Assembly: GCA_033764955.1 (NCBI GenBank)
Contig: JANRIL010000031.1
Span: 10,534-74,533 of the forward strand
Direction of reading: 5' to 3'
From: Cyanobacteriota bacterium
GTDB lineage: Bacteria > Cyanobacteriota > Cyanobacteriia > Thermostichales > Thermostichaceae
DNA: 64,000 nucleotides
Positions 32,660 through 38,638 of the stretch are shown one piece after another (the stretch's first letter is position 1; every line of letters begins with the position of its first letter). A model generated the notes under the pieces. That model did no database searches, was not told the DNA's origin, and was given only the letters and a program-made list of their open reading frames with translations. Position numbers and translations under genes: made by a program.

Positions 32660-33319
32660 CTATTCTGTGATCGCTAACAATTCGTTGGCGAGTTCCAGAA
32701 AAAGATCCCGGTCAAGATAGGAAATATCCCCCACCCATTCCCCTAACTTGACCACATAAACTTCTGTCAAAACGGCACGGCGTTCTAAATCTCGAGAATA
32801 AGCTTTCACCAACCCAATCACCGATTGCCGCTTGACAATGCCATTGTAGCGGGGCATGTCTCTCGCCCGCACGCGGTAGGTTAAGCCTGTTTCATCCCCC
32901 ACTTCCATCTCAAATTGTCGCTCCCGCACCTCCTCGATATAAAGCTCTCCATTCTCATCCAGTTTTTCCCGTTCCTCGATGACTACATTGACCCGACGAG
33001 TTCGCATCACTTGACCAAAAAAAATGCCCGCGTAGGGGATGTCTCGGAAGGCCAGGTTGCGGCGGGAAATCACAAAAACAGGTCCCCACAAAAACGGATA
33101 GAGCAGGGAGAGGATGCCAATCAGGAAGAATACCAGGCCAAAAAAGTTGTTGTCTCCAAAAGGACGAGACACGATTAAACAGGCTACTCCCACCAGAATG
33201 GCGGTGATAATCCGTCCGGTTGAATTGAGGGCATCACTCCAATAGTTGCTGTATTGAATGCGGGTCGGCACAATCGGAATCACCGACTGGGCTTCTTCGG
33301 GGGTTAGCTCCAGCAGCAT
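32660..33319 (-). CDS. Conserved cyanobacterial hypothetical membrane protein
   Basis: IPIVPT..QY..YW, two TM helices, WGPV..SRRN and EVGDETG motifs. Confidence 0.75.
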   Translation of the reverse strand: MLLELTPEEAQSVIPIVPTRIQYSNYWSDALNSTGRIITAILVGVACLIVSRPFGDNNFFGLVFFLIGILSLLYPFLWGPVFVISRRNLAFRDIPYAGIFFGQVMRTRRVNVVIEEREKLDENGELYIEEVRERQFEMEVGDETGLTYRVRARDMPRYNGIVKRQSVIGLVKAYSRDLERRAVLTEVYVVKLGEWVGDISYLDRDLFLELANELLAITE

Positions 33320-33521
33320 AATGGGTGCTCACTTGAGGATCCATAAATTTACGCCTATACGCTCAGCCCTGCCCTTAAAATTGAGCAGGTATGCGGGGCA
33401 GACTCCACCCTCTCATCAGGGAGAGAACAGGTCAAGGGGATGCTCCCAGCCTTGATGGCTATCTCTCAAGACCCATCCCTCAAGGCTCATTGTTCAACGG
33501 CAATATCTCACAGTTTTTGGG

Positions 33522-34106
33522 GTGCTTATCGTGACAAGTCTTTCGGATCCGCCAGCTTCTGACCAACCCAGCCGCCTCTATTATGCCGTGCGGGGATCCC
33601 GGCGGACCAGCGTTTATTTTTGGGCGATCGCTCTGACGGGGGGCAGTCTGGGTTTCACGCTGGCCGGAATTTCTAGCTATCTGGGTCAAAACCTCTTGCC
33701 CTTTACTGAAACCGCCAATCTGATCTTTATTCCCCAAGGGATCACGATGCTGTTTTATGGTCTGGCGGGATCCCTAGCGGGTCTATATCAGTGGTTGAGC
33801 CTCTATTGGGATCTAGGGGGCGGCTATAACCAGTTTGATCGGGTGACGGGCAAGGTGGAAATCCTGCGGCGCGGTTTCCCCGGCAAGGATCGACAGGTGA
33901 AGCTGGTTTATGACTTTGCGGATGTGCAAAATGTGCGGGTGGAGTTGAAGGAGGGCTTAAACCCCAAACGAGCCATTTATTTGCGGGTGAAAGGTCGCGG
34001 TGATATTCCCCTTACCCCTGTGGGGCAGCCTGCTGCTTTGGCGGATATAGAGAACCAAGCCGCCGAGATTGCTCGCTTTTTGAATGTCAGTCTGGAAGGA
34101 ATTTAA
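33522..34106 (+). CDS. ycf4: Photosystem I assembly protein Ycf4
   Basis: GSRR.S.YFWA, FIPQGITMLFYG, GGYNQFD, RRGFPGKDR and AAEIARFL motifs. Confidence 0.97.
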   Translation: MLIVTSLSDPPASDQPSRLYYAVRGSRRTSVYFWAIALTGGSLGFTLAGISSYLGQNLLPFTETANLIFIPQGITMLFYGLAGSLAGLYQWLSLYWDLGGGYNQFDRVTGKVEILRRGFPGKDRQVKLVYDFADVQNVRVELKEGLNPKRAIYLRVKGRGDIPLTPVGQPAALADIENQAAEIARFLNVSLEGI

Positions 34107-34262
34107 GGTTGGGTTGCCCCAGGATCCCGAGTCTTGAGGGGGGGAGGAAGTCTGGGTTAAGAGGAGGCAAGAGTTAAGGGAGCGTTATTCTGGGAGAGGT
34201 GAGGGATCCCTCACCATATCTGAGACTATTTGAGAACACCTGAGTTTGATATCTCAGGCTGT

Positions 34263-34311
34263 ATGGACGGGATCTTTTATCCTTCACGTCCACTGCTGCG
34301 AATGGTTAGGA
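34263..34311 (-). mobile_element. Truncated second attC-like site
   Basis: Minus strand TCCTAAC-CATTCGCAGCAGTGGACG...CGTCCAT gives the R'' box, L''-like arm and inner hairpin; L'/R' arm missing. Confidence 0.55.
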
Positions 34312-34370
34312 AACGCAGACCCAGACAAGCCACCTCACTCACCTAGAACATTCTTGCCTGGGGATCCGAA

Positions 34371-34457
34371 CCCTAACGTTCGCGCTCGCCGGACGCAGAT
34401 AATATTTGCAGATCAGCCAACCATTTAGGACGTTCCGGTGCAGCGCGGTTGTTAGCC
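34371..34457 (-). mobile_element. Integron attC recombination site (87 bp)
   Basis: Minus strand GGCTAAC-AAC-CGCGCTGCACCGGAACG...CGTCCGGCGAGCGCG-AAC-GTTAGGG: R''/R' boxes and L boxes with unpaired bases, 6 bp after the ORF stop. Confidence 0.85.
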
Positions 34458-35340
34458 TGCTGATCACCGCATCCTTGCATACATACTCTCAACCTCTTTA
34501 TCATATATTTTTGACAAGACACTTTTGGGAGAAGCTAGTTCTACAAGACTACGTACATCAATAAGTAATTCTCCAGAATCTCTCAAAAAAAAACCAACAG
34601 GAATTTTTGGAAAATTCTTATCATTCACGAAGATCATAAAACGATGCCCCCAAATCATAAAGCTTTGAACAGTGAATATTTGATCGTATTTCCTAGGGGG
34701 AAATCCTATGATCATGCCTGGATGAAAAACTTTATCAAGTTCATATCTCGAAACCATAATTGGATAGTTTTTTTCGCCTGGAACATCCTCATCAAATAAC
34801 TTTTGTCTTAATTTCTCTTCATAAATACCCAAGCTATATGACTCAAAGAATGGGTCAGATGTTACAGACATCCGCCACAAAATAGATAGAATTGCTAACT
34901 TAAATTCTTTGTACCAAATACCTTCGACCTTGAAGAGGTTTTCACCTATATGGTTTATGGTTAAAAATTCACTCTTTTGATTCCCAATATCAATTAAATC
35001 TCTTTTTAGAGCTGACTCTCGTTTAGAAAATTTTTGCTCGCAACCTCCACAAAGCAATTTTTCTCGAAAACCTTTTCGAATAAATTTGAGTTCGGAATAC
35101 TCCATAGAGATAGGCACTGCTCTATGTCTTTTATCATAAACACCTTCGTAAAATGCTTCTGATATGATGTGAGATTCTCTCAAGTCATGTTTTTGTTGAC
35201 AAAGCTTACAAACCATCATTTAGCTGTTTAACTCAATAATGCAGAACAGTTTATTTGTTTTTATAGTATGGCTGAACTAAATCTGGGTACTCACTGATAA
35301 CATTTAGGGACTGTCCTTATCCTGAGACAAAGCAGGCTAA
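34377..35340 (-). mobile_element. Integron-type gene cassette (about 964 bp), no integrase in window
   Basis: Starts G|TTAGCCTGCT (35341-35331), exactly complementary to AGCAGGCTAAC at its own R''; a single low-GC ORF followed by attC. Confidence 0.8.
34464..35219 (-). CDS. Hypothetical cassette protein with HNH/His-Me-finger-like zinc motifs
   Basis: CKLC...SHII and LLCGGCEQKFS; markedly AT-rich. Confidence 0.7.
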   Translation of the reverse strand: MMVCKLCQQKHDLRESHIISEAFYEGVYDKRHRAVPISMEYSELKFIRKGFREKLLCGGCEQKFSKRESALKRDLIDIGNQKSEFLTINHIGENLFKVEGIWYKEFKLAILSILWRMSVTSDPFFESYSLGIYEEKLRQKLFDEDVPGEKNYPIMVSRYELDKVFHPGMIIGFPPRKYDQIFTVQSFMIWGHRFMIFVNDKNFPKIPVGFFLRDSGELLIDVRSLVELASPKSVLSKIYDKEVESMYARMR

Positions 35341-35430
35341 CAATTCCATAAGCTGCTACACCACTACCCCTAGTGTGAGATTTTCACTAAATTTTCATAG
35401 ATCACGAGAAAACTGGGGAGAGTCGTTTTC

Positions 35431-35665
35431 CCCAATCCCTTATTTCCCTGATCGGGATGACTCCTCTACCTGCACTTGTCCATGTCGGACATGATGCCGA
35501 GTTTCAGTGGGATCCCAGCTTGATGTCGGTAAACGGGATCCCTTTTTCGGTCAAGAGGTTGACGGCTCGCAGCCCCCAAGGACATTCATGGTCAGGCGTG
35601 GACATCCGATAAAGTTTTACCGTTGATCCAGTCGTTAAGGGGAAGGGGGTGATCAGAGTGGTCAT
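35431..35665 (-). pseudogene. Remnant of glutaredoxin-like/MauE-DoxX family gene
   Basis: MTTL...VKLYRMSTPDHECPWGLRAVNLLTEKGIPFTDIKL then GSH-stop (35504-35506) at a GGGATCCC site; AAGGAG RBS. Confidence 0.7.
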
Positions 35666-35706
35666 GAGGTCGTCTCCTTAGACATCGGCTTTTGTTGATA
35701 AACCAA

Positions 35707-35738
35707 CCCTAGACGCTGTCGTAGACTCTAGAGTCAAG
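35707..35738 (-). promoter_or_regulatory. MerR-type promoter for the glutaredoxin/MauE remnant
   Basis: TTGACT-N20-TAGGGT with an imperfect dyad (ACTCT..GT/AC..AGCGT) across the long spacer. Confidence 0.65.
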
Positions 35739-35784
35739 CGAAAAATGGCTTGAACCGCGGACAATAATTTCCTTGGCTCATGGT

Positions 35785-35816
35785 TTGACCCTCTACCCGA
35801 CTAGAGGGTTTATGCC
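35785..35816 (+). promoter_or_regulatory. MerR-type promoter, rightward
   Basis: TTGACC-N20-TATGCC with perfect dyad ACCCTCTA-N6-TAGAGGGT (35788-35809). Confidence 0.7.
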
Positions 35817-36149
35817 GGATAGACTGCGTGGAAAATTCGCCATGACGGTAACAGCCCTCTTAAGTGGCTACAGTAAACAGTTCTGAACAGTTAATTTGCC
35901 GAAACATACCCAATTGGCAGAAATTAAATCAACGATTTAGACTTGCAATAGAGCACTTTAATCTAGCTTCAGGGAAGAGCTGTTCGATACAGCATCATGG
36001 TACAACTGGTTGCAGGCATGAAGCTGATTCTGCTAGGGTTTGCTGGTCTGTTTGCCTGAATCCAAAATCGAACTGAACCCATTAATCTGAGAGAAAGTAC
36101 AGCAGTTCAGGCTCTCTCATAAACTGTAGTAACCCGTGAGAATCATCCA

Positions 36150-38186
36150 TTGCGAGATCTTTTAGCCCCGCTACTGCCACCAGAACCGATTACGGATCCG
36201 GTCGCAATTTTTCTTGTCATCATCGCAATTATGCTGGTGGCCCCGTTGCTATTCGAGCGGTTTCGATTGCCTGGTATTGTTGGTTTAATCCTGGCAGGAG
36301 TCGTGGTCGGACCGCATGGCTTTGGGGTTTTAGAGCGGGATAGCACGATTGTCCTCCTGGGGACCGTTGGACTGCTGTTTCTGATGTTTATGGCGGGGTT
36401 AGAAACCAGTCTGGATGACTTGAAATACAACGCTGATAAAGCCGTGATTTTTGGTTTGGCAACCTTTGCGGTGCCAATGGCGCTGGGTGTGGCAGCCATG
36501 ATGCTGTTGGGCTATTCCTTCCTAGCTGCTGTTTTAGTGGCTTCCTGCTTTGCCTCGCATACCTTGCTGGCATTACCGATCGTTAGCAAACTGGGAATTA
36601 TGCGATCGCAGGCTGTCACCGCTACCCTTGGTGGCACCTTAATTACGAATGTTTTAGCGTTGCTAGTACTAGCAGTTGTCGTTAGAGCACATCAAGGAAA
36701 TCTCACCCTCAGCTTTTGGCTGTTTCTAATTCCCTCTCTCAGCGTCTACACTGTGGCAACCCTCTGGGGTGTGCCTAGACTGGGGCGTTGGTTTTTCCGG
36801 CGCTTTGGGCATGACGAGGGTGCTGAGTTTACCTTTGTGGTCGCAGCGTTGTTTGTGGTGTCCTACGTTGCCAAACTGATTGAAATCGAACCCATCATCG
36901 GTGCATTTCTAGCAGGAATTGCAATTACTCAACTGATTCCCCAGATGAGTCCATTGATGAATCGAATTCAATTTATTGGTAACACGCTGTTTGTGCCATT
37001 CTTCTTGATCTCTGTGGGGATGCTGGTCAATCCCTTGATTCTGTTTCAAGAACCTCGATCGCTGCTCATCTCTGTCGTCATGGTGGGAGTAGCGCTGATT
37101 GCCAAGCTAGTCCCTGCCTGGGGTTCCAGCAAATTATTTCGCTTTGATTTCTCCAATATGATGGTCATGTTTGGGCTATCCGTTGCCCAGGCTGCGTCAA
37201 CCCTGGCAGCAATTACTGTTGCCTACAACATCAAGCTGGTGGATCAGCTCACGGTCAATGGCACGATCGCTATGATTCTGGTGACCTGTCTTGCCTCTCC
37301 CTGGATCACAGACCGCTGGGGGCAGAAAGTGAACTCTAGTCCTACCCCTAGCTATCCATTGCAATTGGCTGATCCGGCTCATGCTCCTTCTCAGTATCGA
37401 ATTTTGGTACCCATTGCAAATCCCAGTACGGAAGATAACCTGCTGCAACTTGCCTTGATTTTGGCAAAGAGTACCCATGGAATCTTGTTGCCGTTGCATG
37501 TATTGATCGACACCCATGGACCTATTTCAACTGAAGCCAAACTGCACCAAGAGCGGCTCTTGGCGGCGGCTGAAACGATTGCTCATGCTGCTGTGACTGC
37601 TGTGGAGCCGATCAGTCGGGTCGATGACTCAATTGATAAAGGTATTTTGAGAACAGCCCAAGAACGCAACGCTAACCTGATTATTTGTGGCTGGAAAGGG
37701 CATTCAAGCTATCAAGATAATTTCTTCGGCAGCGTCATCGATAACATTACTCGTCAGACTCCTGTTCCGATCCTGATTACTCGCTTTACTCACCCGATTC
37801 AGTCAACTCGGCGACTCTTTTTAACTATCTCCAATAGTGAAGCGACAATGCCCAGTTTCTGGCGAGCCCTGAGGCTTATGCAAACACTGGCTACTGAACT
37901 AAAAGCGTCTCTACAGATCTTGCAGGTTCTCCCGAATGCTCACTCAGCCAATGCAGCTCACGCCATTTCTAACTTAAGTGAGGAGGTGCCAGTTCAATAC
38001 GTGCGCGGCAACTTTGTGAATCAAGTATCCCGCATTCTAGAGATAGACGATCTGCTGGTCTTAACCCATCATTCCCGTTCAGAACCTTTCGGTATCCCCA
38101 CGGTGGGAGCACTGCCCACAGCGATCGCCCATCAGCATCCCACCATCTCGATGATCATTGCCCATTTTCCTCAGCAGCGGATTTAG
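36150..38186 (+). CDS. Cation:proton antiporter (CPA2 family) with C-terminal USP-like domains
   Basis: LPGIVGLILAG..VGP, LMFMAGLE, EPIIGAFLAG, FVPFFLISVG and RILVPIANP motifs. Confidence 0.92.
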   Translation: MRDLLAPLLPPEPITDPVAIFLVIIAIMLVAPLLFERFRLPGIVGLILAGVVVGPHGFGVLERDSTIVLLGTVGLLFLMFMAGLETSLDDLKYNADKAVIFGLATFAVPMALGVAAMMLLGYSFLAAVLVASCFASHTLLALPIVSKLGIMRSQAVTATLGGTLITNVLALLVLAVVVRAHQGNLTLSFWLFLIPSLSVYTVATLWGVPRLGRWFFRRFGHDEGAEFTFVVAALFVVSYVAKLIEIEPIIGAFLAGIAITQLIPQMSPLMNRIQFIGNTLFVPFFLISVGMLVNPLILFQEPRSLLISVVMVGVALIAKLVPAWGSSKLFRFDFSNMMVMFGLSVAQAASTLAAITVAYNIKLVDQLTVNGTIAMILVTCLASPWITDRWGQKVNSSPTPSYPLQLADPAHAPSQYRILVPIANPSTEDNLLQLALILAKSTHGILLPLHVLIDTHGPISTEAKLHQERLLAAAETIAHAAVTAVEPISRVDDSIDKGILRTAQERNANLIICGWKGHSSYQDNFFGSVIDNITRQTPVPILITRFTHPIQSTRRLFLTISNSEATMPSFWRALRLMQTLATELKASLQILQVLPNAHSANAAHAISNLSEEVPVQYVRGNFVNQVSRILEIDDLLVLTHHSRSEPFGIPTVGALPTAIAHQHPTISMIIAHFPQQRI

Positions 38187-38188
38187 CT

Positions 38189-38638
38189 ATGTTAAAGATC
38201 GGAGATATTGCCAAACAAACTGGGGTTAGCGTTGGTACGTTACCCTACTACTAGGCTCAAAAACTACTCCATGCTCCTGAACGCAGGAAAAATGGCTATC
38301 ACTACTACGGCACAGAGACTCTAGAACAGGTGCAATTTATTAAGAAAGCCCAATCTCTAGGATTTTCTTTAGAGGAAATCCGTCATATCCTTGAGGTGAA
38401 ATTTTCTGGTGAGAAACCCTGTGAACTGGTACAAGATTTGCTGGCAGAGAAGATTAACCAATTAGAAAATCAGATCCAACGGATGATCCTATTCAAGACT
38501 GAGCTAGAAGGGTATCGAGATCTGTGGGGAAAAACTCCTGCTGACCAAGAACTTTCTCGTGAAATCTGTCCCTTAGTCGCCAGTGTTCCTTTGAGAGCCA
38601 GTGTTGAATCTCTCACACCTGTATTTCAGTCTATCTAA
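38189..38638 (+). pseudogene. MerR-family heavy-metal regulator with premature TAG
   Basis: MLKIGDIAKQTGVSVGTLPYY* (TAG 38252-38254) continues in frame to FIKKAQSLGFSLEEI...PC...ICP. Confidence 0.88.

Follow-up and report, generated by a model that had tools for sequence, protein, structure and literature searches.

The 64,000-nucleotide (64-kb) stretch of cyanobacterial DNA analysed here, in the following referred to as the window, carries a complete integron gene cassette close to the photosystem gene ycf4. The cassette (964 bp, 34377-35340, minus strand) consists of one open reading frame (ORF) and one attC recombination site, and it resides off-platform, with the integrases of the genome encoded on other contigs. 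Since there is a single attC and no integrase on the contig, the element is a SALIN, i.e., a coding sequence that carries one attC and has neither a further att site nor an integrase in its vicinity (Loot et al., 10.1101/2022.09.11.507474). A first-pass annotation of the same DNA had called the element CALIN-like, but a CALIN contains two or more attCs (Cury et al. 2016, PMC4889954), and there is only one in the 64 kb. The same annotation placed the cassette in a lineage not known for integrons. This premise must be corrected: two full-length integrase genes (intI) with attI sites and cassette arrays are present in this genome, intI occurs in 19 of 40 relatives, and Cyanobacteria already figure in published surveys, both as integron hosts (Cury et al. 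2016, PMC4889954) and as the group for which a specific attC model was built (Ghaly et al. 2021, PMC8352920). The hairpin next to the photosystem gene is thus a real captured cassette, and we consider it probable that it was inserted in trans, with an attI-like G|TT as the target.

The cassette and its attC site

The ORF (34464-35219, minus strand) encodes 251 amino acids, and its stop codon is followed, after a gap of 6 nt, by an imperfect palindrome of 87 nt (34371-34457, minus strand). The attC lies directly 3' of the single ORF and on the same strand. Apart from the left boundary (see below), the description given in the first-pass annotation was confirmed when the sequence was read again. 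R'' is GGCTAAC (34451-34457), R' is GTTAGGG (34371-34377), and the palindrome has the arms CGCGCTGCACCGGAACG (34431-34447) and CGTCCGGCGAGCGCG (34381-34395), with a terminal region of 39 nt and unpaired spacers of 3 nt. The two unpaired bases are both on the ORF-proximal arm, as G and A in the top strand and C and T in the bottom strand; when the bottom strand is folded they lie on its 3' arm, and 7 base pairs separate them. The GC content is 34.5% for the cassette without its attC and 56% for the attC, compared with 51% for the window.

The bases that follow G|TT at the left end of an integrated cassette derive from the cassette's own R', and they should therefore be complementary to R''. In the present case the minus strand reads GTTAGCCTGCT at 35331-35341, which is the exact complement of the extended R'' box AGCAGGCTAAC (34451-34461, minus strand) and which is located 121 nt before the ATG and 884 nt upstream of the attC. 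This complementarity had been noticed before, with an end coordinate of 35343 that was 2 nt too far; the left-junction G is 35341 (minus strand). The span of the cassette is counted from the TT after this G to the G of R', and the final 6 nt of the attC (TTAGGG, 34371-34376) are target DNA. The 5' end of the cassette, TTAGCCTGCT (35331-35340, minus strand), is the remainder of its own R' and, once the cassette is circular, pairs with R'', and a leader of 121 nt separates the start of the cassette from the ATG. In the circular form R' becomes GTTAGCC, so that R'' and R' have exact AAC and GTT triplets and fit the consensus sequences RYYYAAC and GTTRRRY (Nivina et al. 2016, PMC5027507) in six of seven positions each. 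The bottom strand folds with its own R' at -25.2 kcal/mol, compared with -15.5 kcal/mol in the integrated form. The sequence GTTAGCCTGCT is also the R' of another attC (C11:180401; contigs are denoted by C and a number, C1 being the 74.5-kb contig of the window), and other attCs of the genome have extended boxes similar to AGCAGGCTAAC, such as AGCCAGCTAAC and CGCAGGCTAAC.

How much weight such a signature can carry was estimated by searching for the longest complement to R'' in the 3 kb upstream of each attC in the genome, with the downstream side as control. A complement of at least 8 nt was found upstream of 21 of the 64 attCs and downstream of none, and the 11 nt of the window cassette are the longest seen, a length reached at five other attCs as well. 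For 11 of these 21, another attC ends exactly at the point indicated by the signature, which validates the method for finding boundaries.

The identity of the attC was established from other attCs of the same genome. BLAST with the hairpin returned copies with 81-85% identity on C7 and C12, and nhmmer extended these to about 25 further sites with the common plan GCTAAC-AA-stem-TGCAGCGG ... CCGCTGA-stem-ACGTTA. From such sites two covariance models were derived, both with the window site excluded: R1 from 18 other attCs, also leaving out the two nearest kin of the window site, and R2 from only 10 attCs in the arrays adjoining the two intact integrases. The structure used in R1 is supported by covariation, since 79% of the alignment cells are paired, compared with 30-45% when the partner position is slid, and since double changes occur in 42 cells, compared with 15-29. 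When the 64 kb are searched with filters off, R1 finds the window attC with 65.7 bits (E 3.9e-16), and its runner-up is the same site on the opposite strand with 11.6 bits, i.e., the match is strand-specific. R2 finds the site with 51.8 bits (E 1.8e-12) and a runner-up of 10.8 bits, and up to E = 10 neither model finds anything else above 12 bits in the window. With these genome-derived models, the covariance search that the first-pass annotation had proposed as a check comes out in its favour, and these scores together with the 11-nt boundary signature bear out its claim that the cassette is complete. In 16 of the 18 aligned family members the first unpaired base is G in the top strand, and hence C in the bottom strand.

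Integrons in the rest of the genome and in relatives

A six-frame search with TIGR02249 identified two full-length, stop-free intI genes above the cut-off of 265 bits, one at C9:19-960 (463 bits) and one at C38:63588-64529 (451 bits), together with intI fragments or pseudogenes on C36, C4 and C30 and at C38:182.6k; none of 14 control genomes had a match above the cut-off. Both intact genes face attC arrays of the same family as the window site, in the classical divergent arrangement. The integron on C9 (1-2700 of the locus) comprises intI, an attI-proximal region, the crossover TAG|TTAG and at least six attCs, and that at C38:61700-64900 has the same parts with at least four attCs. The two live integrons share 86% identity from intI to TAG|TTAG, and past that point they are unrelated; the attI crossover was placed at TAG|TTAG because the similarity stops there. 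A 240-nt attI-proximal region is conserved between them at 77-86%. As judged from these sequences, the integrons of this genome look active.

Of integrases near the cassette there is no trace, in accordance with what the first-pass annotation had stated for the window. A six-frame search with PF00589 gave 11 matches in the genome, and neither these nor the matches of TIGR02249 fall on the 74.5-kb contig C1. At least 29 kb lie between the cassette and any integrase, and the locus is not a complete integron, intI being absent both within the 4-kb reach of IntegronFinder and from the contig as a whole.

Solitary attCs are common in the genome. When R1 was applied genome-wide, at least 76 sites were obtained at E<=1 and at least 68 at E<=0.01, and the latter group into at least 43 clusters (4-kb clustering), of which at least 30 are solitary, in a genome of 3.8 Mb; these counts are lower bounds since they come from the best 150 of 938 candidates scored. 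Dispersion of this kind recurs among relatives. R1 found 19-95 attCs per genome in all five relatives searched (G035, G014, G003, G039 and G040), and in the one-contig genome G035 the sites occur along the whole chromosome and on both strands, from which it follows that dispersed cassettes seem to be general in this cyanobacterial group. The intI genes of the 19 relatives mentioned above all exceed the curated TIGR02249 cut-off.

Three further observations concern integron-related sequence in this genome. A third attI-proximal region, without intI, is found at C11:37532-37686 with 75% identity to that on C9, and the segment C11:33765-37686, in which this region is followed by two cassettes and an array-end motif, looks like a decayed integron. 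The array-end motif is a sequence of 21-23 nt, TTATCGAATTGATGACAGACC, with eight copies in the genome (C11:33765, C27:112523, C27:18906, C23:45245, C4:15558, C38:64781, C7:103470 and C11:52257). In six of the eight it stands immediately 3' of the G of an attC, which is then always the last of its cluster, and the motif may be the right half of an ancestral integration site. The left junction of the window cassette, TTATGGAATTG, corresponds to the first 11 nt of TTATCGAATTGATGACAGACC, with 10 of 11 positions in agreement with the consensus and full identity to the copy on C7. Finally, an attC-like site (E 9e-5) with the array-end motif lies at C38:64697-64803, 168 nt past the stop of the intact intI and on the same strand, and it looks as if this integrase gene itself was once within a cassette-like unit.

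Origin of the solitary cassette

To see how a cassette may come to lie here, consider its left junction. The 15 nt that end in the crossover G, CAGCTTATGGAATTG (35341-35355, minus strand), do not adjoin any intI, and CAGCTTATGGAATTG|TTAG fits the 15-nt core C[AC]GN[TA]TA-N7-G|TTA[GT] that is common to both true attI sites. The same pattern is fitted by five other array starts that have no preceding attC. Altogether the genome contains 11 occurrences of the pattern, and in eight of these, both true attI sites included, there is an attC on the same strand 100-4000 nt downstream. With the control spacings N4-6 and N9-11 none of 41 occurrences are attC-linked, and with N8 the count is two of ten outside attCs. 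The fit of the left junction to the attI core suggests that the cassette was inserted in trans at an attI-like site. A secondary-site insertion next to ycf4 was one of the two readings offered in the first-pass annotation, and the search for intI that it recommended has now supplied two full-length genes, on C9 and C38.

The course of events would then be as follows. An IntI, encoded by this genome or by a donor, would free the cassette as a circle, and the bottom strand of the circle's attC would fold to a hairpin, in which AGCAGGCTAAC and GTTAGCCTGCT together make up a long R box. The integrase would recombine this hairpin with double-stranded DNA at the G|TT of CAGCTTATGGAATTG|TTAGGG, 270 bp past ycf4, a short target similar to the core found in the attI sites of this genome. 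Replication would resolve the junction and leave hybrid ends, with G|TTAGCCTGCT to the left and AACG|TTAGGG to the right. We infer insertion in trans at this very site, and anything said on its timing, on the present mobility of the cassette or on the expression of its gene would be of the same kind.

The left flank was also considered as the decayed 3' half of an attC, and this was rejected: by an ungapped weight matrix it ranks 2328 among 5127 GTTAG-preceded sites, i.e., close to the median, and its spacing is N7, whereas the attC 3' halves that carry the motif have N8 in 36 of 40 cases and N7 in none.

The DNA around the cassette bears marks of rearrangement. On one side is ycf4 (33522-34106, plus strand; PF02392, E 5.8e-74), with its stop 264 nt from the attC, and the flank in between (34107-34370) is unique except for a repeat in common with C30: a 63-nt stretch, 34142-34203, has a counterpart with 90% identity at C30:2052-2114, and an N-terminal intI fragment (C30:655-831) lies about 1.2 kb from this counterpart. 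On the other side, 163 nt of unique DNA (35342-35504) lead to a truncated glutaredoxin-like fragment of 53 codons (35504-35665, minus strand; a weak match to Pfam Glutaredoxin). The first-pass annotation had named this interval after ycf4 and ppa, but the genes on the far side are this fragment and a Na/H exchanger-Usp gene. Over 52 amino acids the fragment is 88% identical to the start of a 281-residue paralogue, a glutaredoxin-membrane gene on C11. The segment 35504-35861, comprising the 53 codons and an intergenic region, is a partial duplicate of C11:148851-149202 with 84% nucleotide identity, and the C-terminal half of the divergent merR-type partner is found at 38330-38638, 2.5 kb off and past the Na/H exchanger-Usp gene. 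The gene fragment and the displaced merR-type half imply that the locus has been rearranged. An insertion inside the glutaredoxin-membrane gene was considered as well, the C11 paralogue having TTATTGAATTG|TTAG, and was discarded: tblastn homology is confined to residues 1-52, and the rest is noise (E>0.5).

Several observations weigh against insertion in trans as described. An empty site was not found among the 40 relatives searched, none of which is of the same genus; their ycf4 genes are 67-73% identical to that of the window, and in them ycf4 and the far-side genes are far apart and not neighbours. The flank is rearranged, with its 53-codon fragment and the half merR-like gene 2.5 kb away. 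A terminator-like hairpin (35433-35417) stands upstream of the ORF, and a promoter scan gave four sites, compared with 3.5 +/- 1.6 expected, none of them positioned to drive the ORF. The core pattern was drawn from six of the eight attC-linked sites that it recovers, so that only two, C9:1199 and C13:24909, are independent. Neither does the pattern as written generalise: in five relatives it is not enriched over a reversed-pattern control, and, among the matches listed, two of 39 have a same-strand attC within 4 kb, when linkage is scored against the best 150 of 220 attCs. Finally, the first unpaired base of the window attC is C in the bottom strand, where G is usual (PMC5027507).

A different history, and one that we regard as rather unlikely, is that the cassette once stood first in a complete integron or a longer array at this place, from which integrase, attI-proximal region and neighbouring cassettes were later lost by deletion or rearrangement. 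It would account for the visible rearrangement of the flanks, for the attI-like left junction and for the recurrence of the 63-nt stretch near the intI fragment on C30, and decaying platforms do exist in this genome, as intI pseudogenes (C36, C4, C30 and C38:182.6k) and as the intI-less attI-proximal region at C11:37532-37686. Against this history, there is no resemblance to intI in either flank, nor to the 240-nt attI-proximal region, which is recognizable at 77-86% identity in the live pair and at 75% in the remnant on C11, and with filters off neither a second attC nor a remnant gives a score in the window. None of the six orphan starts (that of the window and the five others) has similarity to the 240-nt region; only the 15-nt core is kept. 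Loss from a platform would thus require an independent deletion to the same point for each of the five others as well.

That a low-GC acquired gene happens to be followed by an attC-like hairpin, for instance a terminator or some other palindrome, is very improbable. Folding energy alone is weak evidence for an attC, and to this extent such a coincidence would be compatible with the data: the 87-nt bottom strand is modestly more stable than its shuffled versions (z -2.1, with 17 of 500 shuffles equally stable), a 111-nt stretch gives z -1.0 and -0.07, and an Rfam scan of 33000-37000 with E<=10 assigned no family to the hairpin and returned chance snoRNA and miRNA rows only. Against such a coincidence, two covariance models recognize the site at E 4e-16 and 2e-12 and in a strand-specific manner (65.7 versus 11.6 bits), attCs on C7 and C12 share 81-85% identity with it, its stem is not followed by a T-run, the 11-nt signature marks the cassette start, and homologous ORFs adjoin attCs in metagenomes. 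A small transposon, or an element resembling a miniature inverted-repeat transposable element, bounded by the exact 11-bp inverted repeats GTTAGCCTGCT and AGCAGGCTAAC on either side of the ORF can practically be dismissed, given that there is no transposase, that the sole ORF matches no transposase family, that neither end shows a direct duplication of target sequence, that the inner repeat belongs to an attC, as its R'' box, and this attC runs 76 nt further, and that cassette boundaries within arrays follow the same repeat logic (an upstream attC coincides with 11 of the 21 signatures).

There is also a wider possibility, which we put forward tentatively and hold to be rather less probable than its negation. 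The integron may here be a genome-wide insertion system, in which attI-like cores of the form C[AC]GN[TA]TA-N7-G|TTAG in intergenic DNA serve as secondary docking sites for IntI, so that dozens of loci beside core genes like ycf4 could have been seeded with cassettes (the at least 30 solitary attCs and at least 43 clusters in 3.8 Mb), with the same dispersal in relatives. Worth keeping are the two observations that, of the attC clusters in the 3.8-Mb genome, about two thirds are solitary and that several orphan starts share the attI core. Should this pattern hold, it would provide natural evidence for off-platform spread of cassettes, so far shown mainly in E. coli assays, and a rule, open to test, for the target sites of an integrase from outside the Proteobacteria.

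The cargo family and known systems

The 251-residue cargo protein, encoded by an intact gene of low GC content, has no match in Pfam, NCBIfam or PADLOC. It carries the motifs CxxC...SHII...CxxCE, with C4, C7, S16, H17, C57, C60 and E61 invariant or nearly so among its homologues. These number 68 and are all unnamed or 'hypothetical' except the most distant one, labelled 'HNH endonuclease' in UniRef, and their distribution is patchy, with members in Nostoc, a cable bacterium, Leptospira, Asticcacaulis and many metagenomes. In a profile comparison HNH_5 of Pfam matches six of 38 homologues, with a best E of 0.025 that is below the cut-off; a profile search of PDB gave a single chance row (E 0.057). 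The AlphaFold model is confident, with a pLDDT (predicted local distance difference test) of 93. With this model Foldseek found nothing in PDB at E<=0.001 (template modelling score about 0.14), and VIA-align gave a weak best match between residues 1-125 and the HNH domain of EcoKMcrA (Z 4.1), followed, still more weakly, by IscB, ScoMcrA, Cap5 and EndoVII (Z 2.4-3.0). The Atlas neighbours of the cargo include a cluster automatically named HNH endonuclease 5. The cargo is probably a protein of HNH-like nuclease fold, with a probable HNH-like domain at its N-terminus.

Relatives of the cargo occur in cassettes elsewhere. In 80 metagenome loci encoding such relatives, R1 gave 22 matches (E<0.05) in 12 loci, every one of them on the strand of the ORF, and in 10 loci the match adjoins the ORF. 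Since homologous ORFs adjoin attCs in this way, the family is a recurrent cassette cargo. At one locus (L049, 1575-2419) a homologue with 72% identity is followed, 10 nt past its stop, by a different, AT-rich attC with 41% GC and the R'' GGCTAAC, which means that related cargo genes travel with lineage-specific attCs.

Stray cassettes of this type are already known, and cyanobacterial integrons are already published, so the present case is best characterized by its position among described systems. It comes closest to the SALINs and to the IntI1-driven insertions into genomic attG sites, whose core is GWT (Loot et al., 10.1101/2022.09.11.507474). As there, one coding sequence and one attC are found with the integrase elsewhere, and the crossover G|TT fits 5'-GWT-3'. 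Unlike those insertions, it lacks the right-side CRGM motif seen with IntI1 in E. coli and has GTTC at +6 to +9 instead, its left side resembles the attI core of the host, whereas attG is described as unlike attI, and it is a natural cyanobacterial case and not an assay. With the sedentary chromosomal integrons of Cyanobacteria (PMC4889954, PMC8352920) the cassette has in common a homogeneous, lineage-typical attC family, which also adjoins intI in this genome; it differs in lying outside any array, at least 29 kb from intI and on a contig without one. Like a CALIN (PMC4889954), it has an attC with no integrase next to it and with IntI encoded in another part of the genome, but with one attC in 64 kb it falls short of the required two and belongs rather with the 431 single attCs that were set aside as uncertain in the same survey. 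[quoted passage not shown]

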